Counted from the stretch's first letter, positions 1,005 to 42,684 are shown. The stretch: 42,828 bases of DNA from a virus (IMGVR_UViG_3300019872_000006:1-42828), one strand, 5' to 3'. Program-made: numbers and translations. The notes: generated by a model not told the origin, from the letters alone.

Positions 1005-1040
1005 AATAGCCTGCTACAGACCTTGTAGCAGGCTATTTTT
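1005..1040 (+). terminator. Rho-independent terminator built around a palindrome copy
   Basis: AATAGCCTGCTACA-GACCT-TGTAGCAGGCTATT followed by T-run, right after stop 998. Confidence 0.85.
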
Positions 1041-1062
1041 GTATCTGGCTAGAATATAGTTG

Positions 1063-1092
1063 TTGATATCTCCCCTATTAATATGGTACACT
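1063..1092 (+). promoter_or_regulatory. Sigma70-like promoter
   Basis: TTGATA-N18-TACACT with extended -10 TG. Confidence 0.55.
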
Positions 1093-1214
1093 ATGTGTAT
1101 GATAACAACAAAGGAGGATTATAACTGAAACTATTTGGACTTAGCATGGTAATGAGGAGATGGCTGTAATCTGATCCTCATTATCGAGCAAGCCCGCTCT
1201 AAGGACAGCGACCC

Positions 1215-1379
1215 ATGTGTAAGATCATAACCAAAATCCTCAATATTCCCCATGACCTGCCCCCCGGTACATATACCATGACCACTACAGACCCTGTAGT
1301 AAGACTATCCCGCAATCGTCATGACATGGTAGTTACCATGCGTTGCCTATCAATCATCGCGCTAGCTAGCGCCAAGTAG
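1215..1379 (+). CDS. Small hypothetical protein (54 aa, not in ORF track)
   Basis: AAGGA RBS, ATG 1215, MCKIITKILNIPHDLPPGTYTMTTTDPVV..., stop TAG 1379. Confidence 0.6.
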   Translation: MCKIITKILNIPHDLPPGTYTMTTTDPVVRLSRNRHDMVVTMRCLSIIALASAK

Positions 1380-1389
1380 GATACATCTT

Positions 1390-1611
1390 ATGCACAAAAT
1401 TACTCAAATCACCTCAGGCCCTGGCTTCTTTACAGCAGAAGCAATGTCTATAGCATTTGTGAAAATGCTCAACACACCTTCTCGTAAACTATTCCCTTCC
1501 GTATTTGAACATGACCGTGACCGCGCCCGCTATGGTAGCATCGGTAATCGATATCAGGTTACTTTAACCATTACCCCGATTGATGAGAACGGGAATGTAA
1601 TCGATGAGTAA
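1390..1611 (+). CDS. Hypothetical protein
   Basis: AGGA RBS, overlaps next gene start. Confidence 0.7.
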   Translation: MHKITQITSGPGFFTAEAMSIAFVKMLNTPSRKLFPSVFEHDRDRARYGSIGNRYQVTLTITPIDENGNVIDE

Positions 1612-1819
1612 CGCAGTTACAGACCCTGTAGTAGAACTGGATATTACAACCCACATCGTGCCTTCGGCGCCAATCTATGATCTTGAATTCGACAAGCAAA
1701 TAGCCGCGCTATCTAAATGGTGTAATGCCACTAATCAAGAAGTTCACACCAAGCTGAAAGGCGGCTCGTTTATCGTGGTTAAGCGCAAACAAAAGGTATC
1801 CTCAAATGTCAATTCATGA
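1604..1819 (+). CDS. Hypothetical protein
   Basis: Overlapping operon arrangement; palindrome in the usual frame (VTDPVV). Confidence 0.7.
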   Translation: MSNAVTDPVVELDITTHIVPSAPIYDLEFDKQIAALSKWCNATNQEVHTKLKGGSFIVVKRKQKVSSNVNS

Positions 1820-2102
1820 TCACAACTTTGACCCTTGGAATGGACACGAACCTTCTCAACCTCACTTCTATGCCTGTTATATCAAACACCGTCATTCCCG
1901 TCGAATGTCGCGAGTAATGATAGGCGCTTTCAGTAAAGCCCAAGCCAAGGAAGGCTGCGGTATATTCTTACGCATGAACGGTCTCGATGATGTGTTCGAT
2001 TACTTTGCCATATACGATTATGACACTCCAACCCTACTTATCTTTTACATAAAACTACTAACCTCAGGAGGATATGATGTTTCGTTTTCCAATCGCAGTT
2101 AG
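1806..2102 (+). CDS. Hypothetical protein
   Basis: AAGG RBS, contiguous operon. Confidence 0.65.
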   Translation: MSIHDHNFDPWNGHEPSQPHFYACYIKHRHSRRMSRVMIGAFSKAQAKEGCGIFLRMNGLDDVFDYFAIYDYDTPTLLIFYIKLLTSGGYDVSFSNRS

Positions 2103-2265
2103 CCATATCGCCAATACATATGGAATACTTGTCGCAATCGAAAGTGCAAAGCGATTTGCTACAGAACCTGTAGATGATGCTTCTGCTCGTGAGTATATCT
2201 ATATTGCACATAAATATACTGCCGATTACAACTCATCGTTGAGGGTTAAACATGACCGAAGCTAA
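2074..2265 (+). CDS. Hypothetical protein
   Basis: AGGAGG RBS; ATEPVD motif frame. Confidence 0.7.
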   Translation: MMFRFPIAVSHIANTYGILVAIESAKRFATEPVDDASAREYIYIAHKYTADYNSSLRVKHDRS

Positions 2266-2983
2266 AACTTCACGACCGACCGAAGCTAAAATACAACGCG
2301 TTGATATACGTCTTGATTTTCGTGATGGTTGTAATGGCTACACCATCGCGCCTGTGGCGGATGGGAGACTTGTAACATATAAAGACCATGTAGACGCTCT
2401 CGAAGCCGTGAAGGCGACGGTGAAGCCGCGCTCGTGGCCTTTAACAAAGCAAGGCATGGCAGATTTTTCCGCATCTATCGCCACGGAAGCTGAAGTGCTG
2501 AGAGCAGAGAGAGCAGAGAACTCTTTGGTTGTCGCTTCATCTGACGAATTAACGGCCAAAGACCTTCTGTTTTCTTTGGACAGGAATCGTATCGCCGAGA
2601 TCATTGGAGGAAGCAATGCGCCAGCAGATCCTTTGGTGGCGGCTGACCAGATCATTACAGCCATTCTTCTCCAAGCCCGCGCCATCGTTCCATCTCCCGC
2701 TCTCGAAGCCAATCAGCAGCAGCCCGCCATGTCAGACCACGCTCGCGGATGCCAAGGCAGGGAATACACATGCACCTGCGGTTACGACGAAGCCAATCAG
2801 CAGGTTATCGAAACACTGCGGGCGGCGATCAAGCTTACTATTCCGATGATTACTGCTGATAATATCTTGGATCAAAAAGCCAAGGGCGATCTGACTGGTT
2901 GGTGTGAAAGAACTCGTAATCGGCTTCAAGCCGCCCTTTCCCCCACACAACCCGAACCAACTAGAGGCACAGCTAATGACTAA
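2252..2983 (+). CDS. Mosaic hypothetical protein with H-x3-C-x6-C-x-C putative metal-binding module
   Basis: GAGG RBS; 243 aa; DHARGCQGREYTCTCGYD. Confidence 0.75.
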   Translation: MTEAKTSRPTEAKIQRVDIRLDFRDGCNGYTIAPVADGRLVTYKDHVDALEAVKATVKPRSWPLTKQGMADFSASIATEAEVLRAERAENSLVVASSDELTAKDLLFSLDRNRIAEIIGGSNAPADPLVAADQIITAILLQARAIVPSPALEANQQQPAMSDHARGCQGREYTCTCGYDEANQQVIETLRAAIKLTIPMITADNILDQKAKGDLTGWCERTRNRLQAALSPTQPEPTRGTAND

Positions 2984-3263
2984 CGTTACAGAGCCTGTAG
3001 TTGCTCCTCAAACTCACGAGGAAGCACTAAAAGTATTCGCCAATTGGACCCACTCCCTGAACCAGATCGAGCCCAATTCCATCCGAACCAAGTCATTCAA
3101 TCGTATCCTACGAGATATTAAGAAAATGTATGGCCTTCTTGATGCTTTAAGTGCTCAACATGACAAAGGTGCTAATGAATATCTAAAGAAAACAGGAAGT
3201 TATTCTCAATTTGACGAGCCATCGTGTGTTCGTATGGTCAGAGAATTTGTACAGGAGTTGTAG
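2976..3263 (+). CDS. Hypothetical protein
   Basis: GAGG RBS before ATG 2976 (MTNVTEPVV). Confidence 0.75.
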   Translation: MTNVTEPVVAPQTHEEALKVFANWTHSLNQIEPNSIRTKSFNRILRDIKKMYGLLDALSAQHDKGANEYLKKTGSYSQFDEPSCVRMVREFVQEL

Positions 3264-6693: not shown

Positions 6694-7743
6694 ATGAAAT
6701 TTCGACTAGCTACTCCCAATGACTCCCACCTCCCGTACTACTCGCACAGCATCGCCGAAGCCATTTCTACTTGTCCAAAATGGGGACTTATACGTTATAA
6801 GCAACGGAAATACTTCAAATCTAATTATCGAGCAATGGCATTGGACGCCGGGTCAGCCATGCATGAAGTGTTTGCAGCCTTTAGATTGTGGCAGTTGTAC
6901 CGCATCCAAGGACTTGAGGACCACTTCAAATTTCACGGCCGTCGATTGTTCAACGCAGATTTGAATGAAGGGGAAGGTCGGTTTGAACGATCCTTTAAGC
7001 CACGAACCGATCCGCGTGATGAGTTGCTCGCGTTTTGTTTTGAAATCCTGAACTCTGGTTCATTCTACGACGACCCTTCCGACTCCATCCGTACCATGTC
7101 CAACATGGAAAATACCACAATCCGCTATTGCGACACTATGCTCGCGATTGCCGATCGAAATCCTATATGGGTCAGGGATGTAAATGACCCTACAGCACTT
7201 GTAGGCATAGAGCTTGCATTCGACATGGTGATCGATGATGAGATCAGATACATTGGAACAGTGGATGGCCTCTCAGAGCGTACAGAAGGAATACGGCTTG
7301 AGGAAAACAAGACCGCTTCTCGTCTTGATGAGGCATGGCGTGATAGCTTCCAAGTCAAGTTCCAACCTACCGGATATACGGTGGCTGCGCGTTTGCTTAC
7401 GGGCCGAACTGACATTGAGAAAACCAAGATCATCGGAGTAAAGTTGAAGCAAACCCGTTCTATGGAAGACATGCTCTCATTCGAGGTGTATAGAGATAAT
7501 GATGCTATTCGTAATTGGTATAACTTTATTCGTTATATTCATCGTCTTACTCTTGAGTTTGAACGTAACCCTCTCGACGCTCCACAATTCACCCATTCGT
7601 GTAATCGGTATTCTCGTCCTTGCGGTTTTATTGACCTATGTTCTGCTTCGCCTGATGACCAACTAGCAATGTACGAGTCAATGGAAGAGACACCTCTATC
7701 TCCGTCTGAGGAGGCTATTTTAAATGGAAAGGCTGTGACATGA
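6694..7743 (+). CDS. Cas4-like PD-(D/E)XK exonuclease
   Basis: TCPK, GSAMHE, GTVDG, ENKT, Q-x3-Y and C-terminal C-x6-C-x5-C, consistent with a four-Cys Fe-S staple. Confidence 0.8.
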   Translation: MKFRLATPNDSHLPYYSHSIAEAISTCPKWGLIRYKQRKYFKSNYRAMALDAGSAMHEVFAAFRLWQLYRIQGLEDHFKFHGRRLFNADLNEGEGRFERSFKPRTDPRDELLAFCFEILNSGSFYDDPSDSIRTMSNMENTTIRYCDTMLAIADRNPIWVRDVNDPTALVGIELAFDMVIDDEIRYIGTVDGLSERTEGIRLEENKTASRLDEAWRDSFQVKFQPTGYTVAARLLTGRTDIEKTKIIGVKLKQTRSMEDMLSFEVYRDNDAIRNWYNFIRYIHRLTLEFERNPLDAPQFTHSCNRYSRPCGFIDLCSASPDDQLAMYESMEETPLSPSEEAILNGKAVT

Positions 7744-8120
7744 AAATAACCATTCAGCCAGACAACCAGCCTGAACAATACCTAGAATGCCAACGTTGTT
7801 TTGTCTTTACAGGCTCTGTAGCTGACATGCCAAATTGGTTTCAGGACAAGATAGTGCACATATCTCAGCCTATTGACATTGGCGAAGTATGGACTGGTTG
7901 GAATAAACGTAAGTCATTAACCATTCGTTGTGTTGATGGTTATAAAATAGCCGATGTAGGTTCGCTTATCATCGACTTAGGGAAGGACAGATGGCACATC
8001 CTTCCTCTCACACATCCCATGTGGGGTGATGAGTCACATAGAGCCGTTGCTGATAGGAAAGCTATGGGTACTGCTGACGATGGCACAGAAGACACGCAAG
8101 CGAGTACACGTAGGAGTTGA
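7740..8120 (+). CDS. Hypothetical protein
   Basis: ATGA overlap. Confidence 0.7.
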   Translation: MKITIQPDNQPEQYLECQRCFVFTGSVADMPNWFQDKIVHISQPIDIGEVWTGWNKRKSLTIRCVDGYKIADVGSLIIDLGKDRWHILPLTHPMWGDESHRAVADRKAMGTADDGTEDTQASTRRS

Positions 8121-8268
8121 ACTGGATGTAGACGTTCGTGTCACCAGAGACGAAATGCGTGATTTTGTTAACCTCGCGTTTAAGTTAGCTCGAATAGAAA
8201 TGCCACAATGGCACAAACTATCTACTACAGCGAGTGTAGAGATGCTCTCGTTCAAACAAGTTAGTTAG
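8080..8268 (+). CDS. Hypothetical protein
   Basis: MAQKTRKRV...; palindrome in usual frame (TTASVE). Confidence 0.55.
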   Translation: MAQKTRKRVHVGVELDVDVRVTRDEMRDFVNLAFKLARIEMPQWHKLSTTASVEMLSFKQVS

Positions 8269-8277
8269 GAGAATAAC

Positions 8278-8607
8278 ATGAAATACTTCTTTACTGGGAC
8301 ACTGTCTCAACTACTTGAACTAGTATCCCCGTTCGAACAACAGGGCCGTTTCGTCGATGGTGAAAAGACTTATGAGATCAATATTAAGGATGTATCTGAA
8401 CATCCTCAAGTTGATCAAGTTGCCGAAGCTGAGAAGAAGGCTACAGAACCTGTAGTTGAGGAGAAGGTTGAACCTGCTCTTACAGCTAAGGAACAGAAGG
8501 CTGAAGCTAAGGCGGAAGATACACCCAAACCATTGTTTGTTAAAGAACAGCCCGTTGATATCGCCAGTGCTGAGCAAGAGTCTCAGTCCGACGATACAAA
8601 GAAATAG
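8278..8607 (+). CDS. Hypothetical protein with acidic low-complexity C-terminus
   Basis: AGGAG RBS. Confidence 0.75.
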   Translation: MKYFFTGTLSQLLELVSPFEQQGRFVDGEKTYEINIKDVSEHPQVDQVAEAEKKATEPVVEEKVEPALTAKEQKAEAKAEDTPKPLFVKEQPVDIASAEQESQSDDTKK

Positions 8608-8619
8608 GGAACATTCTTT

Positions 8620-9441
8620 ATGGCCTCTGGCGAACTCGAAATCGAGCAATCGAGCGAGAGAAAGTCACGAACAGCAGGAGTTATATGGGGCATAGCAAAG
8701 TGTGGTAAAACTACCTTCCTCACTTCTCTGCCCGGTAAGAAGCTGTTCGTGATGCTCGACCCCGACGGTGACATGTCTCTACCTGACTCACCGGATATTC
8801 ATATTCTCCGCCTCTACGAGCAACCGGATGATTTGATCATTCGGTATCTCACAGATAAACTTCCAACCCTTCTTCGTCGTAACGAACAACAGTTTGATAG
8901 TTGTATTGTCGATAGTCTCTCCACACTTGGGCAGATATGTCTTAATGAAGCTATCCGAACAAACGTCGGTGAGTCGTCGAAGAACGGTGAAAAGTTTAAA
9001 CCCACTATCGATGCTCCGGGACTATCCGCATACGGCTCTCGTACTGCTCGTACTGTAGATATTGTGAACAAAGTCCTACGTGCTACAGGGTCTGTAGGGA
9101 TGCATTGCTGGTTCACTTCTCACGAAGACGAGCCTAAGACCAACGCTAAGGGTGACTTCCTCGGCAGTACCATGACTTTGAGTGGTAAGGCCATTAATGG
9201 CGTAGGACTTAACGTTAGTGAGATATGGTACATGTCACAACACGACGGCAAGTGGAAGATAGCAATCTCACCTTGCCGTGGGCGATCGCCAATGGGGTCG
9301 AGATTATTCGACGTCACTGGTGATATCGAATTCCGTCTCAAGTTCAATCCTGAGCTTGGTACGGATCAACCGCACTCCATCACTACTTGGTATAACACAT
9401 GGGTAGCCAGTGGACGTGCAAAATTAGAGGTTCCGAAGTGA
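8620..9441 (+). CDS. AAA_24/Sak4-like P-loop ATPase (recombination or annealing)
   Basis: Walker A GIAKCGKTT, Walker B IVDSLS, HE motif; located between exonuclease and SSB. Confidence 0.8.
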   Translation: MASGELEIEQSSERKSRTAGVIWGIAKCGKTTFLTSLPGKKLFVMLDPDGDMSLPDSPDIHILRLYEQPDDLIIRYLTDKLPTLLRRNEQQFDSCIVDSLSTLGQICLNEAIRTNVGESSKNGEKFKPTIDAPGLSAYGSRTARTVDIVNKVLRATGSVGMHCWFTSHEDEPKTNAKGDFLGSTMTLSGKAINGVGLNVSEIWYMSQHDGKWKIAISPCRGRSPMGSRLFDVTGDIEFRLKFNPELGTDQPHSITTWYNTWVASGRAKLEVPK

Positions 9442-9704
9442 TAACATTACACAAAGGACTGCCTGTGAAGGGTTATGGCGATCAGTCTACAGAGGCTGTA
9501 GCACAGGACAATTTGAACAAAGAGAACGAAGAACGACTTCTTCGTCTCATTGATCTTCTAAATGATACGGGAGACTACGATGGCCGGTGGTTGTCGATTG
9601 CTCGTACTCATTTTCAAGAGGGATATATGGCACTGAATCGTGCTATATTCCGACCGAGCCGGATTAGTCTTCCAGAAGATACTCCTTCGAAGGTGGAAGA
9701 TTAA
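9438..9704 (+). CDS. acb2: Anti-CBASS cyclic-nucleotide sponge, Acb2/Vs.4-like
   Basis: KGY...N-x2-KE...GRWLSIARTHFQEGYMALNRAIFRP resembles Acb2 KGY...N-x2-KE...[25 protein letters not shown]; GTGA overlap start. Confidence 0.8.
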   Translation: MITLHKGLPVKGYGDQSTEAVAQDNLNKENEERLLRLIDLLNDTGDYDGRWLSIARTHFQEGYMALNRAIFRPSRISLPEDTPSKVED

Positions 9705-9736
9705 TTCAAACTGAACCTTAATTAAGGATAACCACT

Positions 9737-10222
9737 ATGGCTAAGGCCGCTGCTAAAACTACCAACAACGAAACTGCAACAAAGGAACGTAACGTGAGCA
9801 ACAACGAAAACATTCTTGAACTGGATATGGACCTTGAAGAGTTCGACGATTTCGAACCCCTTCCCGCTGGTGAATATCCTGCAGAAGTTCGTTCTGCTGA
9901 AAAGCGTATCTCGGATAAGGGAAATGAGTACTACTATATGGTGCTCAATATCCACCCCGACGACTTCCCTGCTGACTACGCAATCGAAAATGCACCAGAA
10001 GGTATGAACCTTATCTATGCACGCCTGCAGGTTCCTACTGCTGCTAACCGTCGTTCTATTACCGCGGTTAAGAAGTTCTACCGTGCAATCGGCCTGACTC
10101 TCAAGACTTCGATCATCAACCCCGGCGAATGGGAAGGCAAGAAGACCAAGGTTCTTCTCGGCCGTTCGGAATATAATGGTGAAGATCGTAACGACGTCAA
10201 GGGTCTCGAAGCCCTCGACTAA
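9737..10222 (+). CDS. Single-stranded DNA-binding protein (DUF669-like)
   Basis: DFEPLPAGEYPAEV...EYNGEDRNDVK; position after the AAA ATPase. Confidence 0.75.
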   Translation: MAKAAAKTTNNETATKERNVSNNENILELDMDLEEFDDFEPLPAGEYPAEVRSAEKRISDKGNEYYYMVLNIHPDDFPADYAIENAPEGMNLIYARLQVPTAANRRSITAVKKFYRAIGLTLKTSIINPGEWEGKKTKVLLGRSEYNGEDRNDVKGLEALD

Positions 10223-10246
10223 AGCTCTCGACTAACTACAGAGTCT

Positions 10247-10275
10247 GTAGGAGGCATTCGTGCCTCCTACTTCTC
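10247..10275 (+). terminator. Stable hairpin or possible terminator after SSB
   Basis: GTAGGAGGCA-TTCG-TGCCTCCTAC perfect 10-bp stem; weak U-tract. Confidence 0.55.
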
Positions 10276-10304
10276 CTCCTGCAACCCAATCGAAAGATTT
10301 CCCA

Positions 10305-11480: not shown

Positions 11481-11517
11481 GCTACAGAGTCTGTAACTAC
11501 AAGCTTAGGAGTTGTAG

Positions 11518-11769
11518 ATGAAAACACGTCTATCTCGTACCAACTATCCCCATGTTCCTTGCACTCATCCCGATCCTCTTATCAAACAGCTATTCGACAT
11601 TATCGATGATCGTAAGCTATCCTTTCGTTCGATATGTCGAGTGGCCAAGATCGATAACCAAACTTTGGAACGTATTCGCTATCGTGAGCATTTACCAAAC
11701 TATGCTACGCTAAAGAAGATAGCTGAGACCATTGGTTATCAACTTACTTTGGAGAAAACACATGTCTAG
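11518..11769 (+). CDS. XRE-family helix-turn-helix protein
   Basis: LSFRSICRVAKIDNQTLERI...PNYATLKKIAETIG; AGGAG RBS. Confidence 0.75.
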   Translation: MKTRLSRTNYPHVPCTHPDPLIKQLFDIIDDRKLSFRSICRVAKIDNQTLERIRYREHLPNYATLKKIAETIGYQLTLEKTHV

Positions 11770-11935
11770 TGAAATACGTATAGTTGCCATTTGGGCAATC
11801 GTGGTAATCACATTGGCAATACTTGCATCTATATTCTTGCATGGTTGTGCTCAGCCACCACATACAGTCAACAAGGGAGAAGATCAGCTATGGACAGTTT
11901 TGAAATATCACGAAAATCATCCAACAGTACCCTAA
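11762..11935 (+). CDS. Small membrane protein or lipoprotein
   Basis: GGAG RBS; hydrophobic helix ending LHGC. Confidence 0.6.
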   Translation: MSSEIRIVAIWAIVVITLAILASIFLHGCAQPPHTVNKGEDQLWTVLKYHENHPTVP

Positions 11936-30301: not shown

Positions 30302-30320
30302 CGATCGATCTCCTTAACGA

Positions 30321-33394: not shown

Positions 33395-35369
33395 TGGGTG
33401 GTACTCCTTGTTGGTTCGCTGCGGGAGGCTGACCGGGAACAGATTGTCCCTTGGTTAGGTTAGCCTGTGCTTCTGTATCAAGTTCTTCCCAGTCTTTCTT
33501 CTTCATTACGAAGTTCGAGAATGCTGTTTGGAACATCTTAATGATCAATTTCAGCGTTGTAGCTGGTGCTCCTTGACCAAGTTGGCCAAGAGCCTGAGCA
33601 ATTTGAATTGCTTCCTTCTTTTTAAACTCAGTAGTTGGCTTCTCAATTGAGCCTGCAGCAATTGTCATCCTGAACCGTTGATTAAACTCAATCACAGTCA
33701 TTGGTTGAAACTTTGCTGCGTACTCTGGCCCTACAAGTTCTGTAATGTCCTGTACTGTGTACTTCGACACGATAACTTCTGCCATTGACCAACCAAGGGC
33801 TTCGAAAGAGTCCTCAATATTATCAATGATCATGCCGGTGTTGGCTTGTTTATTCTCTGCCATATAGTCCACGGCAGAAGTATTAGTATTAGTCTTAAAC
33901 TGTTCACCCTGATCAACATCGCTAAGACCATTTGTCTTATTAATAACCGATCGTAGGTTCTGAGTTTGGAACACATCAGCATATTGCATAGCAGGAGGAG
34001 CAAATACCTCCACCATATCGCTGATCTTCTTCTGTTCACCATTACCTTTCTTTACAGCAAAGGCTTCAACTTCTCTAGGATTGTTAAGGTGGTGAACTAG
34101 CTTCTTAACCTCATCCTTATCAATCATAGAAGGATCATACAACAAAGCACCAAACACACTATTCCGTATCTGTTGTGCCTTTGCATTGATCTGGTTGATT
34201 GTGTTTACCTGACCTACAATGAATGATGCTTCACCCGGTTGAACAATGCCATCAATTGCCTCAGAGAAGGAAATGATATAGTGCCTAAAGAACCGAGACA
34301 GCTGAAGATCGTCATCATATACCCATAGCGGATACTTCCAGTCTTCAGAATTGAACAAATAGATACGACGAGTAATCTTATCATAAACGTACCAGCATCT
34401 AACCTTATTCTTGTTCACATACTTACGTCGTTCATCGGTCTGATCATTCATTACCTTAGCAATAATCGTATCTTCAACCGAGTCACCAGCATTACTGCTT
34501 TCTGGCTTTTTATGTTTTTCATTCGATCGCATGACCCATTCTTTATCGCCAGTCTTCTTATAGAATTTCTGGTCAACATAATCACGGTCAAGAAAGCACT
34601 CTTCAGCAAGCCATTTAGCATCAGACAAGTCGATATGTGTGCAGTCTGGATCAACGATAACTCTATGAGGAAGAACGTTGCTTAACAACATCCCTTTGCC
34701 TTCGAGCAGAGGCATTTGGTCATACAGAAGCTGTAGCTCGGCCATGAGCTCGTCGATTTCGTCTTTTGACTTGGCACTTTGAAGTTTCGTTTCAATCTCA
34801 ATAAGATTCGCACGAGCCTCTTCAAGACTTCCTTCCTTTGGTTGAAAGTCGAGCCTCATAATACCAAAATTAGTCATCTGACCATGCATGATCCAACGAC
34901 GTGCTTTAGGTTTAACATTCAAACCCGGATGAGTTTGTTTGTTCATGAGAAACGAAATGATATACTGCAAAGTTGTGGTTAGATCGTCGTCGGTATCAGA
35001 AGCAGTGAACTCAAGATTTGGATTACGCATATACGTAGTACGCATAATTGTCCGAATATTGGTCCTAATAATGTTCTCATCGGTGGCATTCTTATGGTTA
35101 TACTTGTACGTATATCCATTACCATCTTGAGCTTTGCCTTCATCACCGCAACGACGATAGTGATCAAAGATATCATCCCACTTCTGATGCTCTGGCTTAT
35201 AAACTGCCTGAGCCTCATTTATCTTTTCATGCCAATATGAGCCCATTTTACTAGGCACAGGAATACTCATACCAGAAGCCATTGCGAACGATGGCTCTTT
35301 GTAGTCTACAGGGTCTGTAGCAGTTATATTATTAACAACTGCATCCTGTTCTATCGTGCTTCTTGCCAT
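33369..35369 (-). CDS. Portal protein
   Basis: About 666 aa directly after TerL. Confidence 0.8.
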   Translation of the reverse strand: MARSTIEQDAVVNNITATDPVDYKEPSFAMASGMSIPVPSKMGSYWHEKINEAQAVYKPEHQKWDDIFDHYRRCGDEGKAQDGNGYTYKYNHKNATDENIIRTNIRTIMRTTYMRNPNLEFTASDTDDDLTTTLQYIISFLMNKQTHPGLNVKPKARRWIMHGQMTNFGIMRLDFQPKEGSLEEARANLIEIETKLQSAKSKDEIDELMAELQLLYDQMPLLEGKGMLLSNVLPHRVIVDPDCTHIDLSDAKWLAEECFLDRDYVDQKFYKKTGDKEWVMRSNEKHKKPESSNAGDSVEDTIIAKVMNDQTDERRKYVNKNKVRCWYVYDKITRRIYLFNSEDWKYPLWVYDDDLQLSRFFRHYIISFSEAIDGIVQPGEASFIVGQVNTINQINAKAQQIRNSVFGALLYDPSMIDKDEVKKLVHHLNNPREVEAFAVKKGNGEQKKISDMVEVFAPPAMQYADVFQTQNLRSVINKTNGLSDVDQGEQFKTNTNTSAVDYMAENKQANTGMIIDNIEDSFEALGWSMAEVIVSKYTVQDITELVGPEYAAKFQPMTVIEFNQRFRMTIAAGSIEKPTTEFKKKEAIQIAQALGQLGQGAPATTLKLIIKMFQTAFSNFVMKKKDWEELDTEAQANLTKGQSVPGQPPAANQQGVPPNAGQTGQR

Positions 35370-36841
35370 TGCATCCACTCCGGTTCCGGTTTAGGTATCT
35401 TGTAAAGCAGTGTACTTGCTTCAGGAACTTTTGATAGCAAATATTTCAAGCTATCCATGGCATGGTCTTTGTGATCTCGTGGCTCATCGAGTCGATTACC
35501 TTGACCATCTGACTTCCAGAAATAGCCAGTAAACTCCTCTTCAATCCAATCTAACTCATCGCAGAAGTAAATCCCGGGACCAAACGGTTCTTCTTTATTA
35601 TAGTGAAGACCGGGTTTCGGAGTAAGATACTCAGCAACCTTCATTATTCCCGACGCAATATTGTTTTGCCCTGCAACAACATTAAGGTCGTGATTTTCGC
35701 GTAGCAACCGAGCAACTGTTGCAGCTCCTTTTCCTGTTCCATCGACAACTGTTCTTTTGAATATCGCAGGGTCACAGTAAATCGGATCGTCGTACTCGAA
35801 ATAGTCGTAGTACTTCTCTTGCAGCTCAAGTATTTTCTTGCCCAATGTCGAAATGTTCGGCGTCGGTTCGTAGAAACCATCAACAATGAAAATCCTCCCT
35901 AGTTCATCCGAGAATGCTAAGAGATAGCAACTCGGAGAGGACATGCCGAAGTCTAAAGATTGGTATGCATTGAACTTCACACGATGATCAGCTGCCTCGT
36001 ATAGTACCTTAGCAAAGTGACCACGAGGTATCATATGCACATGAGTACTAAATGCAGGATACACTAATCCTTCATAAGCAGCCCATTCACCGAGAAGAAA
36101 ACGATCTCGCATTTGGCCGACATACGCAGCTTCAAGACCTTGGAGGAAGTCTGGCTCAAGGTTATGTTTGTTCTCATAAGTCGAACCTTCAAGCACAGTA
36201 ATGAGTGGTTCCATTGTGTGGCGATCATGGAGAAGGTCTTCACCTACAGTACCTGTAGCTATAAACTTGTGATAGGGGCGGACAAGTTTCTTATAAACCC
36301 AATTTGCAGTAGGATTACACGTGAGAATAAGCCAACGAGGGCCAGTCATTGGCATAGATTTATCGTTACCCTTGTAACTAGCAGAACCACGAAGACGCCC
36401 AAGCAAGTCAAGAAAATCCTTGTGCTCAATCCCTGGGTCTTCAACTTGATCCACAATAGCCCAGTCATAAGTAGCGGATAGCAGATTAGAAGTGCTAAAC
36501 CCATCATCGGTCTGTTTACCTCTTTGTGATAGATAACGAAAGTTAATCACACTGCCATTTTTAAAGATCAGTGTGTTGTCATCCTTTGTAGGCCAACGTT
36601 TAACCTCATTTCGTGGAACCCATTTATAAAACTCCTTACGAATGGTGTCGTTGAGTTTCGGATAAGTTTCACGAGCAATTAGGCCATTAGAACCGGGATA
36701 GTCCATAGCAAGACCTACAGCTTTCACACATGCAGCTGCAGTCTTACCATTACCAAACCCACCACCGAGAAGCTGGACCTTAGTCCTACACTCCAAGAAG
36801 CGTTGGTGAATGCCTCCTTTAACAATTTTATACTGAAGCAT
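35351..36841 (-). CDS. terL: Terminase large subunit
   Basis: GGFGNGKT Walker A, IVDQVE Walker B, TCNP, DFG and DHAMDSLKY nuclease motifs. Confidence 0.93.
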   Translation of the reverse strand: MLQYKIVKGGIHQRFLECRTKVQLLGGGFGNGKTAAACVKAVGLAMDYPGSNGLIARETYPKLNDTIRKEFYKWVPRNEVKRWPTKDDNTLIFKNGSVINFRYLSQRGKQTDDGFSTSNLLSATYDWAIVDQVEDPGIEHKDFLDLLGRLRGSASYKGNDKSMPMTGPRWLILTCNPTANWVYKKLVRPYHKFIATGTVGEDLLHDRHTMEPLITVLEGSTYENKHNLEPDFLQGLEAAYVGQMRDRFLLGEWAAYEGLVYPAFSTHVHMIPRGHFAKVLYEAADHRVKFNAYQSLDFGMSSPSCYLLAFSDELGRIFIVDGFYEPTPNISTLGKKILELQEKYYDYFEYDDPIYCDPAIFKRTVVDGTGKGAATVARLLRENHDLNVVAGQNNIASGIMKVAEYLTPKPGLHYNKEEPFGPGIYFCDELDWIEEEFTGYFWKSDGQGNRLDEPRDHKDHAMDSLKYLLSKVPEASTLLYKIPKPEPEWMQWQEAR

Positions 36842-37449
36842 TACTTCTTACCTCTTACATCAATACTAATTGATGTCTTTCCTCGGTGATCTTCTTCCTC
36901 AAGTATAACTACCTTAAAGCCCTGATCTTCCATATCAGCAGATTTGCCGTAGAGAGTTTCATGATTAAGCCCTGCACGGTCGGCCAAATCTTGTGATGCT
37001 TTAAGCTGCACAAGCTCAGTCTTAGCATTCTTGTGCAAATGAGCAATTTGATCCACTGCAGAATGTGCATATTTAGAGATTGTTGCTTGAAGTGAGTTGC
37101 TGTTCACGTTAATAATTTCGTTAAACAGCATCTCAAAGGTGGTCTGAAAATCACTTCCCATCATAATGTTCTGCACAACAATGACGTCGAGATGCAACAT
37201 ATGTGCAGTCTCGTTCTGTGTAAGCCCAAGAAGGTGATACATAAGAATAGCATTAATGGCGGTTTGAGTGCCGGTATCAGATGAAGGCATCTCATTCATA
37301 TTACGACGTGACGATATCTTCATATTCCGTGCAAGTGGAACTAGTAGAGTAGTCTCACCATGCTGTGAAGCGGGCGTCTTATTCTCGTCCACTTTCACTT
37401 CACCACGAGGACCGACATAAGGATCACCGGGTTTTGCTAAACTTCCCAT
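36841..37449 (-). CDS. Probable terminase small subunit
   Basis: HTH-like GLTQNETAHML; TAATG coupling to TerL. Confidence 0.65.
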   Translation of the reverse strand: MGSLAKPGDPYVGPRGEVKVDENKTPASQHGETTLLVPLARNMKISSRRNMNEMPSSDTGTQTAINAILMYHLLGLTQNETAHMLHLDVIVVQNIMMGSDFQTTFEMLFNEIINVNSNSLQATISKYAHSAVDQIAHLHKNAKTELVQLKASQDLADRAGLNHETLYGKSADMEDQGFKVVILEEEDHRGKTSISIDVRGKK

Positions 37450-37484
37450 TTCATTCTCCGTGGGTTCAACTACAGACCCTGTAG

Positions 37485-38657
37485 CTACACAAGTGCAAGT
37501 ATTTGATCTGCAACAAAGTTACCCCAATTGAGATAACCAAGTGTATTGGGGTGGTTCTGGTTATAGATTTCACCTTTAGCATTCATCGTATTCCAGTCAA
37601 TAGAGCGATCAGCCCAAGCAAACATAGCACGATTGTTCGCAATAGCTTTTGCCTTAAGATCGTTAAGAAGACGATCTTGAATTGCTTGTGATACTTGAGC
37701 AAGGTTTGAAGGAATACCGGTACCATACAATACACTAGCCCCACCAGCCGCAGCAGCCACATCAAGAGTCTGATAGTTAGCATTGTATGTCGCATCAGAC
37801 ATATTCAAAATACCATCATTAATGGTTGAGCATAGAAACACACCAGAAGCAATTGAACAGATGTCTTGCAGTGATGGAAGTGGTGACCAAACATTTGCAT
37901 TCACAACCCAATCGGTTGTTGAAGACGAACCACGACCAACATTTAGAATTTGGCACTGCTTAATTGTAGAATTCCAGCAACGATAGCCACCAAAGAAACC
38001 GGGACTTGTAACGTTCTTAATGACAATTGTATGAAAACCAACTGACCCAAGGGAAACGATTGTTCGCTTTTGTGTATTAGTACCAGTCTCAACAATGTTA
38101 ACCGCTGATCCACCGTCGATTGTATACGAAATCGTACCGGCTGTTGTGATTTGTGGATACTGAAATTCAATAGTATCACATTGATCTTGTGTAACAATTG
38201 TAATCGTGGATGTGGTATCAGTCGTGTTGGTCCATAAACAACCACCGAGAGTTGTAGAACCAGAGAAAACCCAGCCACTGCCGGTAAGTGACATCCCTAC
38301 TTTGTACACATTATTAAAATCAGAAGGGTTTGTTACTGTAGCATTGGCACCAGAAGCATATAAATTCTCATAAGTTGATGGAATTCCATTTGCTGCAAAA
38401 CGTTTGGCCATAATAGTAGGCCAGCAACGTTCTTTCGCATTGACTCGGTTATTACCACCAGAGTCGCCACCACCTTCACCCCAAATATTACTATCACCCT
38501 CACAAACAATAATACAATTACCGGTTCCAGCCTTCACAGCTCGAAGATCGGTAAGCATCTTTGAAATACGAGCAGCTGATAGGTTAAAAGTTCCCGGTGC
38601 CGACTTGTTTTGATGGCAAGCTTGATATCGGAACTTCCTATAAGCAAGCCTCTGCAT
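37485..38657 (-). CDS. SGNH/GDSL esterase-domain protein, probable head spike/fibre
   Basis: GDSN (block I), G (block II), IND (block III), NHPN-x2-G (block V); TGATG coupling to the spike base gene. Confidence 0.8.
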   Translation of the reverse strand: MQRLAYRKFRYQACHQNKSAPGTFNLSAARISKMLTDLRAVKAGTGNCIIVCEGDSNIWGEGGGDSGGNNRVNAKERCWPTIMAKRFAANGIPSTYENLYASGANATVTNPSDFNNVYKVGMSLTGSGWVFSGSTTLGGCLWTNTTDTTSTITIVTQDQCDTIEFQYPQITTAGTISYTIDGGSAVNIVETGTNTQKRTIVSLGSVGFHTIVIKNVTSPGFFGGYRCWNSTIKQCQILNVGRGSSSTTDWVVNANVWSPLPSLQDICSIASGVFLCSTINDGILNMSDATYNANYQTLDVAAAAGGASVLYGTGIPSNLAQVSQAIQDRLLNDLKAKAIANNRAMFAWADRSIDWNTMNAKGEIYNQNHPNTLGYLNWGNFVADQILALV

Positions 38658-38917
38658 CAGAAGCCACCGACAAGGCCAGCAGCAGCAGTTCCTGTAGCCC
38701 AAACCTTCTTAATCTCACAATAATTCCATCCAAAGTTGGCAAGAAGAGTAACTTTATCACCAAAACTGTTCTCAATTGTGAGATTTCCTGCAGTTCCTAC
38801 ATAAATTCCCTGTAGACGTGGTGCATATATAGTAACATCCGATGCAGTTACAGGAATTAGGTTCAAAAACGATGCACCAAGACGTGTATGACGGCGTTCA
38901 TAAACATTATCAGCCAT
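38657..38917 (-). CDS. Head spike base protein, RcGTA Rcc01079-like
   Basis: VTASD...GIYVGTAGNL...G..VT...KKVWATGTAA signature; 86 aa; GGAG RBS. Confidence 0.75.
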   Translation of the reverse strand: MADNVYERRHTRLGASFLNLIPVTASDVTIYAPRLQGIYVGTAGNLTIENSFGDKVTLLANFGWNYCEIKKVWATGTAAAGLVGGF

Positions 38918-38948: not shown

Positions 38949-38980
38949 AAAAAGGCCGCTACAAGGTCTGTAGCGGCCTA
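38949..38980 (-). terminator. Rho-independent terminator centred on a palindrome copy
   Basis: - strand AGGCCGCTACA-GACCT-TGTAGCGGCCT-TTTT after stop 38986. Confidence 0.85.
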
Positions 38981-38985
38981 TTCTA

Positions 38986-39321
38986 TCAACCAAACCAACC
39001 TGCTTTTGAAGTAAACACAGCAGTTCGTGATGTACGAGTGAAAATCTTGAGATCATCAGCGATATCACCAGCAGTAGTAACACGATTTACATCGTAAACA
39101 ACTTCCATTGGACGATATCCACCCTGTTCAACAACGTTTGCAGCCACACGCTTGTGACTATCGGCTGCTGTACTACCAGCAACCACGCCATTCAACGCCT
39201 TCATGATAGCCCGACGCTTCTTGGTCTGCTTCAGCAACTTGCTGATCGTAAACTCAAGAGGAGTTGTCGAAGTATTAATGGGAAAGGCGTTGTTGAACAG
39301 AGGAGAGTAATATGAAGCCAT
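38986..39321 (-). CDS. Hypothetical protein (111 aa), first gene of the leftward arm
   Basis: GGAG RBS before ATG 39321; own terminator. Confidence 0.75.
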   Translation of the reverse strand: MASYYSPLFNNAFPINTSTTPLEFTISKLLKQTKKRRAIMKALNGVVAGSTAADSHKRVAANVVEQGGYRPMEVVYDVNRVTTAGDIADDLKIFTRTSRTAVFTSKAGWFG

Positions 39322-39349
39322 GTGCGCATCTCCATTGTTAACAACAACT

Positions 39350-39381
39350 ATATAGCTACAGATGCTGTAGGAGGATGTCAA
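39350..39381 (-). promoter_or_regulatory. Leftward promoter with a palindrome copy between -35 and -10
   Basis: - strand TTGACA-TCCTC-CTACAGCATCTGTAG-CTATAT. Confidence 0.5.
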
Positions 39382-39406
39382 TATAAGTACGTAACATGTA
39401 CGCGTG

Positions 39407-39470
39407 TATATATAACTAAAACCAATAACTATAATATATAATAATAAATAATAAATTATAATATATTTAT
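39407..39470. other. Very AT-rich non-coding tract, candidate origin or unwinding element
   Basis: TATAACTAAAACCAATAACTATAATATATAATAATAAATAATAAATTATAATATATTTAT. Confidence 0.45.
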
Positions 39471-39539
39471 CCTTTTGGGATGAGAAGAGAATGAGACCGC
39501 GCTCCAGAGCGGTCGCATATACCTCGCTCACTAGGTATA

Positions 39540-39568
39540 TACATATCACACTATCACGTGTTTGTCAA
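39540..39568 (-). promoter_or_regulatory. Leftward sigma70-like promoter
   Basis: - strand TTGACA-N17-TATGTA, including TGTGATAT as in the 3401 promoter. Confidence 0.6.
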
Positions 39569-39607
39569 TATATTTATTTATCTACAGCGCTTGTAGTCAA
39601 CTATCTA

Positions 39608-39636
39608 TTTACAATTACTACTTCACCACGTATATC
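39608..39636 (+). promoter_or_regulatory. Rightward sigma70-like promoter
   Basis: TTTACA-N17-TATATC. Confidence 0.55.
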
Positions 39637-39642
39637 TAACTA

Positions 39643-39744
39643 GTCGATGCTTCAGGCGGACGTCGACAGTACGCTGAGGTGACGCTCCTCTGACTCACGC
39701 AGAGTTGGGTTTCTTCCTTTACCACGCAGCTCCCTCAGCGTACT
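39643..39744 (+). ncRNA. Candidate structured leader or ncRNA
   Basis: Stem GTCGATG/CGTCGAC followed by perfect 12-bp stem AGTACGCTGAGG/CCTCAGCGTACT enclosing CTCTG/CAGAG; starts at the predicted +1. Confidence 0.4.
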
Positions 39745-39787
39745 TCAATTCCAGGGCTATGTGGATATCAACAATCAAGGAGTTTTC

Positions 39788-39985
39788 ATGACTACTACAG
39801 TAACTGTAAAGGCTAACCATGGTTGGCCAGTTAAAGCTACCGGTGTCAAAGTTGGTACAATGGAACCAACAAACTATGGTGGAGTTGTTCAACCCGGTGA
39901 ACAGCGCGACTTCCATTGCCATTCGACAATGGATTTGATCGTTCATGAAATCCAACCAGAGGAAACCAACGCCAATCCCTCATGA
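39788..39985 (+). CDS. Hypothetical protein (65 aa)
   Basis: AAGGAG RBS. Confidence 0.7.
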   Translation: MTTTVTVKANHGWPVKATGVKVGTMEPTNYGGVVQPGEQRDFHCHSTMDLIVHEIQPEETNANPS

Positions 39986-40104
39986 ATACGCCGTCAAGGC
40001 GCGATGCACTACAGTACACTGTCCAACTATACTGTAACTATCGTCCTTTACAACTACAGCCTCTGTAGCTACGGTAAATATGCCTCCCAATGGCAGCGAC
40101 TCCT

Positions 40105-40149
40105 AGCCCTAGGATCATGGTTTCAATACCGTGCCTAGGGCTTCTTTTT
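40105..40149 (+). terminator. Rho-independent terminator
   Basis: AGCCCTAGG...CCTAGGGCT followed by TCTTTTT. Confidence 0.6.
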
Positions 40150-40546
40150 GCCTTGGTCGTAGCGCCGATTATTCATCCCACCTAGCGCACGTACGTGCAC
40201 GATGGACTACCGTACGGATACGTTAGCTACAGGATATGTAGTAGTGGTGGTTTGAACTAGTTTCAGAGGACGCTGGACCTCCTTCGTCGCCGCCGGACCA
40301 GCTGGCTCTACAACCAGGGGTTTTGGAAAAGGCCGGGGAGTACCGGGGGTTGAACTACAGGAAAGCCTACTCATTAGTAGGATGCTAATGATTATGGCCC
40401 TAGTCGCTAGGCCGCGCGCAATGCAACTAAAAAATGTATGAATGATTGTACGTTTCAACCATAGATAAGTAGTATCTGGCTACAGGGTCTGTAGTATATA
40501 GTTGTGGCGCCATATAGGCGCAGATCATCGAAAGGGGTTAATAAAT

Positions 40547-40753
40547 ATGGGTCGCTTTACTGCCGATGAGGCGCTAGACTTGAGATATAGCGATGAGGCA
40601 ATCATGCTCGACTTTGTATCAGGCGCAAAGATATGCGAAAACCATGATACATATGTACGTGAATTCATTCGTGATACCTATCCCAACAAGGGGTGGAATG
40701 CAGAAGAGGAATTCATTAACGCTGGCGATTTGTTCGCTTGGTTGGGGTATTGA
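40547..40753 (+). CDS. Hypothetical early protein
   Basis: AAAGGGG RBS. Confidence 0.7.
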   Translation: MGRFTADEALDLRYSDEAIMLDFVSGAKICENHDTYVREFIRDTYPNKGWNAEEEFINAGDLFAWLGY

Positions 40754-40963
40754 ATATGAGGCGCGAGCTAACACTTCTGATCATTTGGCCAATGTTCTGC
40801 TTACTGGTGATTTATATCGCAGAACCGTTAGTTCAATGGCTCGTGTGACTCTGGACAAACGGGAACGCGTCTCGTCGCCAGTACAACACTCACTAATCTG
40901 CCCAGAATACACTCATAATCGTGCATAAACACACTAACTACAGACAATGTAGCACATTTTCAG

Positions 40964-40993
40964 TTGACAATAGGAGTGAATTGAGCCTATAGT
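40964..40993 (+). promoter_or_regulatory. Strong sigma70-like early promoter flanked by two palindrome copies
   Basis: TTGACA-N18-TATAGT; copies at 40938 and 41026. Confidence 0.7.
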
Positions 40994-41073
40994 ATAGGAG
41001 TAATATGGGTTTAGAGTGTTATCTACTACAGATGATGTAGTAGATAGCGAACTAAACAAGGGAATATACAACC

Positions 41074-41271
41074 ATGGAGCAAGCAAAAGATCATATCGAG
41101 CTAGCTACACACTCAATAATGGTGATTAATCGCTTTATTAATGTGTGTAAAACACTCCAAGACGTACATGGGGTACGTCATTGGGAGATGCAACGGCAAA
41201 TGTACGTTGATCAACGTGACTATTATCGTACATTGTTGCCACTACAGAAGGTGTATCAGGATGAAAACTAA
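41074..41271 (+). CDS. Hypothetical early protein
   Basis: AAGGGA RBS. Confidence 0.65.
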   Translation: MEQAKDHIELATHSIMVINRFINVCKTLQDVHGVRHWEMQRQMYVDQRDYYRTLLPLQKVYQDEN

Positions 41272-41473
41272 CATCACTAAACACATATATGACCTAGTTG
41301 CTCACGCTAGGAAAGAGTACAAAGATACTCGCAATGCTCACGGTAAAGCAGTTGAGTATGGGGAACAGGTAATCAACAGTCGTTACCGTTCTGATAGTGA
41401 AGAAATACAAGCAATGGTTGCAAACAGAATGTTGAAAGCAACCAATAGTCACATTTATATCCTGTTAGTGTAA
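41261..41473 (+). CDS. Hypothetical early protein
   Basis: AAGG upstream; overlap with previous gene. Confidence 0.6.
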   Translation: MKTNITKHIYDLVAHARKEYKDTRNAHGKAVEYGEQVINSRYRSDSEEIQAMVANRMLKATNSHIYILLV

Positions 41474-41573
41474 TAACATAAGGATTGAAGTAATTACTAC
41501 ATAGTCTGTAGCTATACAACTATGTAGTAATTGAAGCAATCCTGCTTCAAACCGATCTCGAAAGGATCATATA

Positions 41574-41882
41574 ATGAAATTTGCTATCATTGCTCTATCC
41601 GTAGCCATGTTGTCTTCTTCTGCATTTGCACAGGAAGTTGTTACAGAACCTGTTACAAATGTATCATTGCCAACTGCTACTGATACCGTTGTTGTACCAG
41701 ATGACTTGAAAGCACAATTTGAAGCTGTATGTACTTCAAAGGCCATCAAGAGCAAGAAACTTACCTCCGCTTGCGAGACCCACGCCTATCCCAAGCTGAA
41801 CAAGAAGGGCACAAAGTTCACACAAGCTGGCGTTGGTAAGGAAATGCTTATCCTATCCGTCAACATCGACTTCTTGAAGTAA
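41574..41882 (+). CDS. Secreted/periplasmic early protein
   Basis: Sec signal peptide MKFAIIALSVAMLSSSAFA; two Cys; AAAGGA RBS. Confidence 0.8.
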   Translation: MKFAIIALSVAMLSSSAFAQEVVTEPVTNVSLPTATDTVVVPDDLKAQFEAVCTSKAIKSKKLTSACETHAYPKLNKKGTKFTQAGVGKEMLILSVNIDFLK

Positions 41883-41960
41883 CCTTAGCTAAGGTGTCTG
41901 CTACAGATAATGTAGCAGCATCCTTAACTAAAGGTATACGTCACAACGGAGGAACTAACT

Positions 41961-42098
41961 ATGACTAAGCTGCATGATTGCTTGTACTACTTCTTCATAC
42001 TTGTAGCTATCGTGTGTTATATTGATCTATTCTATCCATATGTACTAAATTCTATCGTGCATGTACATGCGCCAACGAGGATTGAATTCTATGTCTGA
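41961..42098 (+). CDS. Small membrane protein (45 aa, not in ORF track)
   Basis: GGAGGA RBS; YYFFILVAIVCYI. Confidence 0.55.
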   Translation: MTKLHDCLYYFFILVAIVCYIDLFYPYVLNSIVHVHAPTRIEFYV

Positions 42099-42273
42099 AC
42101 CATTGATCGCTAATCGATATCGTGTTGTGCCATATATCCATAACACCTCGCGCCAATATATCGTATACGACACCCTTAAGGATAAGTATGTTCCTCCTCT
42201 ACATCAGGATGAGATAAAGGCGCAAGAACAGGCTAATGAATTGAGTGCGTATCATCGCATAACAATGGGCTAG
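42091..42273 (+). CDS. Hypothetical early protein
   Basis: GAGGA RBS before ATG 42091. Confidence 0.65.
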   Translation: MSEPLIANRYRVVPYIHNTSRQYIVYDTLKDKYVPPLHQDEIKAQEQANELSAYHRITMG

Positions 42274-42286
42274 GAGGAATAACGTT

Positions 42287-42379
42287 ATGATTACAGCACT
42301 TGTAGGAGGAATAATTATATGGTTTGCTGTGCTTATCGTATGTTCATATTTAGTTGTGCATAATGGAAATCGTGATTGA
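42287..42379 (+). CDS. Small membrane peptide (30 aa, not in ORF track)
   Basis: AGGAGG RBS; MITALVGGIIIWFAVLIVCSYLVV. Confidence 0.55.
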   Translation: MITALVGGIIIWFAVLIVCSYLVVHNGNRD

Positions 42380-42405
42380 CAACCTCGCGCTAGCTAGCGT
42401 AATGT
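42376..42405 (+). promoter_or_regulatory. Sigma70-like promoter
   Basis: TTGACA-N18-TAATGT. Confidence 0.55.
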
Positions 42406-42432
42406 CATCACTTACGAAAGGTATCCGCCCGG

Positions 42433-42684
42433 ATGAAACAGGTACACATACCGCTTGAAGGAATACGTTATCGTCATTACGCCCTCCTTAGTTCACCTAC
42501 AGAAGTTGTAAAGCAGGGTGAAACTAAATACGGCGAACGAACTATCCCCATTGAAACAATTCGTGATTATCACCCCGGTCTTTATGGCTTCCAATCCGTA
42601 CAATCTCGTGATAAATTCGTCAGTAGGATGAACGCATCTAATGAACTCCGCCCATGTGTTGCTGTCTTGCTACAGGGTCTGTAG
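42433..42684 (+). CDS. Hypothetical early protein
   Basis: AAAGG RBS; stop TAG is supplied by a palindrome copy. Confidence 0.65.
   Translation: MKQVHIPLEGIRYRHYALLSSPTEVVKQGETKYGERTIPIETIRDYHPGLYGFQSVQSRDKFVSRMNASNELRPCVAVLLQGL

Follow-up and report, generated by a model that had tools for sequence, protein, structure and literature searches.

What does a small phage do with one and the same palindrome written across its entire genome? The question is raised by IMGVR_UViG_3300019872_000006:1-42828, a viral sequence of 42,828 nucleotides which was analysed at its full length and is called the window throughout. The phage is podophage-like, with a circular 42.7-kb genome, and it carries a lattice of 15-bp dyads with the core TACA-N5-TGTA. 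An earlier note on this DNA had put the number of dyads at about 68; the tiling of the whole phage which it described was confirmed (1014..42684, no strand assigned), and by pattern count there are 72 copies, the first at 1014 and the last at 42684. The consensus of these sites is CTACAG-N3-CTGTAG, with 6-bp arms around an N3 centre, and it is matched exactly by 23 sites, with one mismatch by 35 and with two by 12. When up to two mismatches were allowed, 73 matches were found, compared with 1.19 expected (maximum 4 in 100 shuffles). The fixed spacing was also borne out, as spacers of 0-15 other than 5 between TACA and TGTA give 0-4 copies each; the reversed order TGTA-N5-TACA gives 3. The centre is free only in part. 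ACC/GGT and AGT are favoured, and the centre skew on the sense strand is 17:15 in the plus arm and 16:6 in the minus arm, the site being a palindrome with no asymmetric, oriented 13-bp form.

The expected enrichment was confirmed with the encoded proteins held constant: 46 of the 72 core sites lie inside curated genes, compared with 1.56 ± 1.23 (maximum 6) in 300 synonymous-codon shuffles, and the looser two-mismatch pattern gives 48 in curated genes vs 12.2 after synonymous-codon shuffling. Another 25 window sites lie outside the curated gene set, some of them within small open reading frames (ORFs) identified later, and 1 more lies in an ORF with a misassigned start. The sites are also spaced evenly. 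The gaps have a mean of 587 bp (about 630 had been claimed), a minimum of 72 and a maximum of 1489 bp, the last in agreement with the claimed 1.5 kb, and their coefficient of variation (CV) is 0.60 vs 0.98 for random placement, with none of 5000 random placements equally even. Using only the structural and lysis arm (17004..38700, minus strand), which holds 26 sites, nearly all read as T-x-x-V, the CV is 0.41 and none of 20000 random placements is equally even, so the evenness is not a product of intergenic spacing. No helical phasing of the gaps was detected (period 10.5, p 0.33).

The lattice extends through the clade to which the phage belongs, either with the same motif or with a different one, as the earlier note had thought possible. 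All seven near-whole relatives of the window subclade (7/7) carry 40-87 TACA-N5-TGTA sites, with a CV of 0.47-0.61 in each and with lineage-specific flanks. In one genome, G014, the lattice is built of TAAA-N5-TTTA (31 copies vs 1.6 expected). In the sister subclade, 8/8 genomes carry 18-42 copies of another 15-bp dyad, TGT(G/T/A)TG(A/T)-N-(T/A)CA(C/A/T)ACA, vs 0.2-1.6 expected, and seven of these genomes are even at P <= 0.026. The motif types across the clade are TACA-N5-TGTA, TAAA-N5-TTTA, TGTGTGA-N-TCACACA and TGTTTGA-N-TCAAACA. Neither lattice type is present in the complete relatives G011 and G012 or in the fragments G009 and G010. A quick TerL tree with 76 rows places every lattice row in one clade of 51 (Shimodaira-Hasegawa-like approximate likelihood ratio test, SH-aLRT, 99), and at the threshold used no dyad was scored in the other 25 rows. 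Four rows within the clade were initially scored as having none: L136 has a mixed-half-site lattice, L101 has 14 sites and L102 has 5, the fourth being L158. Left out were a metagenome record with the same sequence as the window, loci shorter than 6-7 kb, and duplicate TerL or gp1 rows. Mixed half-sites (for example, TGTGA on one side and TTTGA or TATGA on the other) were also seen in G013, G015, G018, G019 and G020, as if caught between motifs.

Within the clade, individual sites turn over. When 17 core genes were compared among 8 genomes, 57 of the 98 site columns proved to be private to a single genome, and the T..V pair is kept at just 18 of 459 orthologous positions that have no site. At the same time, both extremes of the gap distribution are depleted when 17 genomes are pooled (of 827 gaps, 9 were very short and 4 very long, the expected numbers being 79 and 36). 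Such turnover together with an even spread means that the position is free and the coverage is kept. The lattice also bends protein sequences to hold its sites. The T-x-x-V reading frame is used by 41 of the 46 in-gene sites of the window and by 174 of 187 coding sites overall, and the window proteins contain 45 T-x-x-V, vs 28-36 for other spacings and 18 in G004, which has another motif.

The next question is whether the site is read in double-stranded DNA (dsDNA) or folds as a hairpin. Across 537 sites in 8 genomes, symmetric arm positions pair no more often than within-genome shuffled partners, the observed and shuffled numbers of pairs being 319 vs 333 at positions 1/15, 286 vs 319 at 6/10 and 123 vs 184 at 7/9. 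Part of this deficit arises because the centre is asymmetric and the sites were not oriented beforehand; in the flanks, one of six positions is mildly positive (z 2.5). Arms without covariation imply that the lattice site is not a hairpin, and the data support a two-fold dsDNA site rather than an RNA or single-stranded DNA hairpin. This agrees with the earlier note, which had pointed to non-compensatory arm mismatches and had favoured a dimeric, dsDNA-type site.

A candidate reader of the dyads is gp1, a protein of 307 amino acids (aa) encoded at 75..998 on the plus strand by a gene with no internal site. From sequence comparison and structural modelling, we consider it probable that gp1 is the reader. 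In the protein collection gp1 has 55 homologs, itself included (subfamily A1), and a second subfamily, A2, with at least 100 members, is represented by the G004 gene in the equivalent position; the two are homologous (18% identity, hhalign 98.3%, E 1.4e-14). The protein is present in 17/17 near-whole lattice genomes, and it was not found in the complete lattice-free G011 and G012, in the fragments G009 and G010, or in nine TerL rows outside the clade with at least 7.4 kb upstream. Among 19 families traced, only gp1 and orf126 are restricted to the clade. The TACA dyad is carried by 8/8 A1 loci and by 0/25 A2 loci (several loci are near-duplicates), and the 25 A2 loci have 15 TGTG-type dyads, 9 TGTTTGA-type dyads and one weak dyad. 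In partial correlation with motif distance, gp1 ranks top of 17 gene families in 16 genomes (0.61; 0.68 for its basic helix), compared with capsid (0.42), SSB (0.35), a winged-helix remnant discussed below (0.22) and orf126 (-0.46). G006, which is near-identical to G005, was left out of this test and of the divergence-ratio test, and L168 was left out of the window scan in the correlation test for its 4-base spacer. The gp1 gene has a site no more than 150 bp upstream in 12 of 17 genomes and downstream in 15 of 17 (start codons were picked by a script). In the window, the site before gp1 (42670..42684, no strand) ends about 77 bp 5' of its start codon across the circular junction, and autoregulation through it is possible. 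In L168, which encodes an A1-type gp1, and in L095, the TACA-type dyad has a centre of 4 bases rather than 3 (L168 has 25 copies), and G012, a genome with no gp1, has about 10 unevenly spaced copies of the palindrome TTATACGTATAA.

The fold and the dimer of gp1 are predicted. AlphaFold2 gives a predicted local distance difference test score (pLDDT) of 90 for the whole protein and 95 for its core, and the model consists of a long N-terminal helix, a compact core (48-228) containing a basic helix (130-159), a flexible linker (231-241) and a C-terminal helical hairpin. The homodimer model scores 0.81, compared with 0.00 for the best of 3 controls, and its runs share at least 78% of contacts with a pLDDT of at least 79; the mark used for this score is reached by 20/30 proteins solved as pairs and by 1/23 solved as single chains. 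The basic helix is largely invariant in A1 and contains R140, the sole residue invariant across both subfamilies. In the corresponding helix of G014, Val is found where TTACAA-type relatives have Asn. The 57 gp1 members matched no PHROG, Pfam or PDB-sequence family of note, a search of 50,697 phage records with an A2 query gave no match, and neither the whole model nor the core had a Foldseek match at E <= 0.001. The best VIA Z values are 5.0 for the helical hairpins (50 aligned, root-mean-square deviation (rmsd) 2.0) and 3.5 for the core (49 aligned, rmsd 3.8); these values do not show a new fold. The element order of residues ~49-110, three helices and then a beta-hairpin, fits a winged helix, with the match to SmtB at background level (Z 3.2, rmsd 6.9, 64 aligned).

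The properties of gp1 bear on the proposal of the earlier note that the sites are programmed nick or modification sites, to which single-strand hairpins may be added. We consider this highly improbable. Two window sites do sit in longer stems: the site at 1014, which lies 16 bp past the gp1 stop and whose stem is lengthened by complementary flanks (1007..1035, no strand), and the site at 38959, which is part of a terminator-like 12-pair hairpin plus T tail (38953..38979, minus strand). However, the arms pair less than shuffled partners at the three position pairs given above, and the 57 gp1 proteins match no nuclease or methylase family. They have no conserved catalytic set and, across the subfamilies, no conserved acidic or His residue, the single Arg being the only invariant position.

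Our preferred reading, to which we give a probability of roughly 45%, is that gp1 dimers coat, organise and mark the phage genome from the lattice sites and thus provide an architectural self-mark. It starts from what was observed directly, namely the lattice, its even spacing and turnover, the two-fold dsDNA character of the site, and the joint occurrence of gp1 and lattice in one clade; all steps beyond the lattice itself are what we infer. In this scheme, gp1 would be made early and in quantity, each dimer would read one dyad, probably via the basic helix 130-159 and/or the helix-hairpin 79-110, and the C-terminal hairpins on their flexible linker could bridge sites, while a site at the promoter of gp1 itself would set the level of the protein. 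The coat would organise the whole phage chromosome and so would likely mark it as self in the infected cell. Selection would then act on coverage, with no long bare stretch and no clustering, and not on particular positions, and gp1 would change in step with the motif, so that every lineage would acquire a code of its own. Coating and self-tagging were both among the options of the earlier note; they have gained a candidate reader, and the function remains conditional on the steps just described. Evenness through the late genes, free positions and the lack of orientation fit DNA coverage better than promoter control, and the view that the lattice is not an ordinary operator set is supported.

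The strongest rival is stoperator-like silencing, which we regard as rather unlikely. Here gp1 would be a repressor and the sites would be orientation-free stoperators, which silence the whole genome in a dormant or delayed state and confer immunity against kin; motif drift would then be the drift of immunity groups. For example, in G003, G015 and G018 the gp1 ribosome-binding site is preceded by a site that follows a sigma-70-like promoter (identified by eye), and most of the 17 genomes have their densest sites around the early region. In the window, the densest sites, with gaps of 88-458 bp, are found in the gene-poor divergent region with the first early genes (39300..42690, no strand). Internal sites are rare in genes that are likely highly expressed (per kb, gp1 0.12, SSB 0.12, int1 0.06 and capsid 0.49, vs mostly 0.6-1.0), which fits a roadblock, and joint divergence of repressors and stoperator motifs is described for Cluster A phages in the passages of one report (PMC6550527). 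However, among the 64 window ORFs scanned against PHROGs no integrase, partition gene (parAB) or primase was found, although a remote family could be missed, and there is no clear prophage in GTDB (0 loci with capsid; TerL on 1 contig of a metagenome-assembled genome, which belongs to a lattice-free relative), a result that an episomal state would also fit. Even spacing through late genes is not obviously needed for silencing, and gp1 has no similarity to the phiC31 repressor. That repressor, c, was tried as a gp1 relative on a weak language-model lead of 0.80 for both subfamilies, and was rejected at an hhalign probability of 0.1-0.4%, with no PF25746 match in the genome.

A role in replication is kept open mainly because of the loss of an ATPase. 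The complete lattice-free genomes G011 and G012 encode, after PolA, a full-length protein of 423-495 aa (11017-12288 in G011 and 9559-11046 in G012; L240, L243), assigned to DUF3987 for G011 (E 2e-10), and DUF3987 proteins are presumably replicative helicases. In 17/17 lattice genomes only its C-terminal domain is retained, as a stand-alone, winged-helix-like protein of 75-130 aa, and no DUF3987 ATPase was detected in the replication module of the window. On this basis, gp1 on the lattice could be a distributed replication platform which recruits helicase, primase or restart proteins in place of the lost ATPase, and the longest gaps in the TACA clade, 1.1-2.7 kb, are of Okazaki-fragment size. 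We consider such a platform quite unlikely, since the coincidence of ATPase loss and lattice is one branch with two outgroup genomes, those outgroups show no primase either, and the sites have no AT-rich unwinding element and no strand asymmetry beside them. The absence of primase was likewise rejected as a lattice-linked trait, G011 and G012 being in the same state as the window. A broader version, in which this soil-podophage clade gave up the ATPase, a gp1 dimer of new fold sits every 0.5-1.5 kb as nucleoid and replication platform, and the genome and even its proteins were rewritten to keep the lattice even, is in our estimate unlikely.

The same ATPase remnant is one of the proteins that might be the reader instead of gp1, the others being orf126 and a host regulator for which the sites would be decoys; we find this possibility very doubtful. 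In each of the 17 lattice genomes the remnant stands alone, and it is mostly basic; orf126 is likewise confined to the clade. In addition, the G014 dyad, TTAAA-N5-TTTAA, contains TTAA-N7-TTAA (24 copies), which we take to be the CtrA box. However, the predicted recognition (third) helix of the remnant is acidic and varies among genomes sharing one motif, which makes it a poor reader, and its correlation with motif distance, low overall, is negative within both classes. In the window, the frame of the remnant (16685..17026, plus strand) overlaps the end of the HNH gene and is conserved, and it was missed by ORF calling; it has no ATG, GTG or TTG start, with ATC standing after the ribosome-binding site where relatives have ATG. 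These letters agree in contigs from three runs of two studies, and either a non-standard start or a silenced gene is indicated, in a genome whose lattice is intact. There is no tracking of the motif by orf126 (-0.46), and the count of CtrA-type boxes in the window is 0. The decoy idea of the earlier note is unlikely because the motif switches along with a phage gene and is seldom found in the bacteria covered: there are 36 copies of YTACAG-N3-CTGTAR in the window, and in 401 bacterial genomes of the phylum of G021, which is presumably Pseudomonadota, 91 have a match, with at most 4 copies per genome, although the true host may not be among them. The view that the site is private to the phage is supported, and the contig G132:C122, which has two sites, shows no similarity to these phages within the 12 kb covered. 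Other readers were tried and rejected, namely a Cro-like helix-turn-helix (HTH) protein (11518-11769, plus strand) and the adjoining LuxR-type HTH fused to a WYL-like domain (11887-12336, plus strand), each with a match in fewer than 2 of 10 relatives, a 110-aa coiled coil with homologs in 3/3 outgroups, and an 83-aa ORF before gp1 which is restricted to part of A1.

Several observations weigh against coating by gp1 or against gp1 as the reader. First, the evenness of spacing is not significant in G014 (P 0.15) or in G018 (P 0.45). Second, the covariation between gp1 and motif rests on the deep split between A1 and A2: A2 by itself shows no signal (0.09 for gp1, -0.18 for the helix), and in A1 the values fall short of significance (0.36 for gp1, P 0.12; 0.52 for the helix, P 0.06), the helix being equalled there by tail protein A (0.52). 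On the TerL tree, gp1 and the lattice were gained together in a single event, the between/within divergence ratio is higher for the capsid protein than for gp1 (2.27 vs 2.03), and two different helix sequences, those of G004 and G017, share the GTGTGA motif. The capsid gene (11 and 13 of 17) and orf81 (12 and 12 of 16) are flanked by sites almost as often as gp1, and the net charge of A1 proteins is near zero (-11 to +7). Third, lattice phages still avoid 6-bp palindromes (-0.41 to -1.66), so the coat gives no relief from restriction; compared with four outgroups, two of them fragments (-1.59 to -1.77), there is a trend only. Finally, no result here separates coating from silencing, and the two roles could coexist.

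With regard to the host, GANTC is depleted in the window (50 vs 124 expected) and more strongly in G005, G007 and G011 (1-6 vs 105-121). Passages of a published survey report GANTC depletion in most Alphaproteobacteria (PMC8919816). This is only a hint of an alphaproteobacterial host, because restriction avoidance would look alike. Most A2-associated dyads have GANTC at their centre. The sequencing runs that contain the phage are soil metagenomes, of which the best match may be the one the sequence came from, and no RNA dataset is among the runs listed.

Compared with known systems, the closest published case is the dyad array of Cluster O mycobacteriophages. According to passages of that report, these phages carry 17-bp dyads with inverted arms around 3 bases (34 copies in Corndog, many in genes) without meaningful orientation and without integrase, most sites keep similar positions, and a dimeric protein is predicted by the authors, who describe function and reader as unknown (PMC4351075). 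The window lattice is alike in its arms around a 3-bp centre, its more than 30 genome-wide copies, many in genes (46/72 here), and the absence of integrase and parAB from the matches found. It differs in site sequence and in number (72 copies in 42.7 kb vs 34 in Corndog), and in evenness, turnover, protein recoding and clade-wide motif switching, none of which the Cluster O passages report (PMC4351075), as well as in having a specific candidate reader, gp1, of no known family. No Cluster O record was among the top matches listed for tblastn with window proteins. The statement of the earlier note that the site is not a described one therefore holds for its sequence, while the kind of array is in print (PMC4351075). 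In Cluster A phages such as L5 and Bxb1, the stoperators are described, in the passages concerned, as 13-bp asymmetric sites oriented with transcription, at 20-30 per genome, bound by a monomeric repressor, Rep, in temperate phages (PMC6550527). Both systems have many genome-wide sites for one phage protein, most of them off promoters, and motif and protein diverge together, a tracking which for gp1 is 0.61 across the deep split and 0.09 within A2. The window site, in contrast, is a 15-bp palindrome with 72 copies per genome, a candidate protein predicted to be dimeric and no integrase found.

Host proteins offer a further comparison. MatP (on matS), Noc and SlmA are sequence-specific dimers with an architectural role on dispersed palindromes, which lie tens of kb apart in part of the chromosome, and MatP has a C-terminal bridging coil. 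gp1 matches none of them by Pfam, and the window lattice, which is private to the phage, is much denser; MatP is not among the fold-search matches listed for gp1, although an unlisted family could still fit. The phiC31 repressor c, from a temperate phage, also acts on conserved dispersed inverted repeats, and it differs in having no profile similarity to gp1. ParB and KorB dimers likewise bind dispersed palindromes, but no ParB match was obtained by sequence profiles in the 64 window ORFs (PHROGs) or in the 57 gp1 proteins. A literature search found no paper on this motif, clade or protein, most subscription journals being outside the search.

The remainder of the genome is as follows. The ends of the window overlap by 138 bases with 3 mismatches, which indicates a closed circle of about 42.7 kb; the mismatches lie near the start of the overlap (1-20 vs 42691-42710), just upstream of gp1, and are probably an assembly edge. 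The replication module (6694..14809, plus strand) encodes an exonuclease, a Sak4-like protein, SSB, a RecD-like helicase and a family A polymerase with an N-terminal uracil-DNA glycosylase domain (UDG-PolA; 12323-14809, plus strand), the last common to the relatives checked. The structural and lysis arm encodes terminases, portal, scaffold, capsid, tail and tail fibre proteins, an endolysin, and large proteins taken for internal virion proteins; it also contains a GNAT acetyltransferase gene (23119-23571, minus strand), and an esterase-like protein (by eye; 37485-38657, minus strand) adjoins the terminase genes. A dATP/dGTP pyrophosphohydrolase-like gene is found at 5758-6276 (plus strand). 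G004 has a small ribbon-helix-helix gene (21222-21497, minus strand; TacA1-like, E 6.5e-6) between SSB and helicase, which was not seen in the window. No cultured relative was found, the best tblastn identities being 21-26% (TerL, capsid and PolA).

In conclusion, genome-wide phage dyads were already published in 2015 for Cluster O, and the candidate reader family is the new part. The clade makes protein and site testable together: a gene that matches no known family falls into two subfamilies, which correspond to the two motif classes, and there are several natural motif variants as well as lattice-free relatives to act as controls. Should gp1 be the reader, it would represent a new sequence-specific DNA-binding family with naturally re-coded specificity, and it would also show how a small phage can label or arrange all of its DNA with neither modified bases nor a shell. 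As the T-x-x-V pattern shows, the lattice shapes protein sequence and forms a second code over the genetic code.

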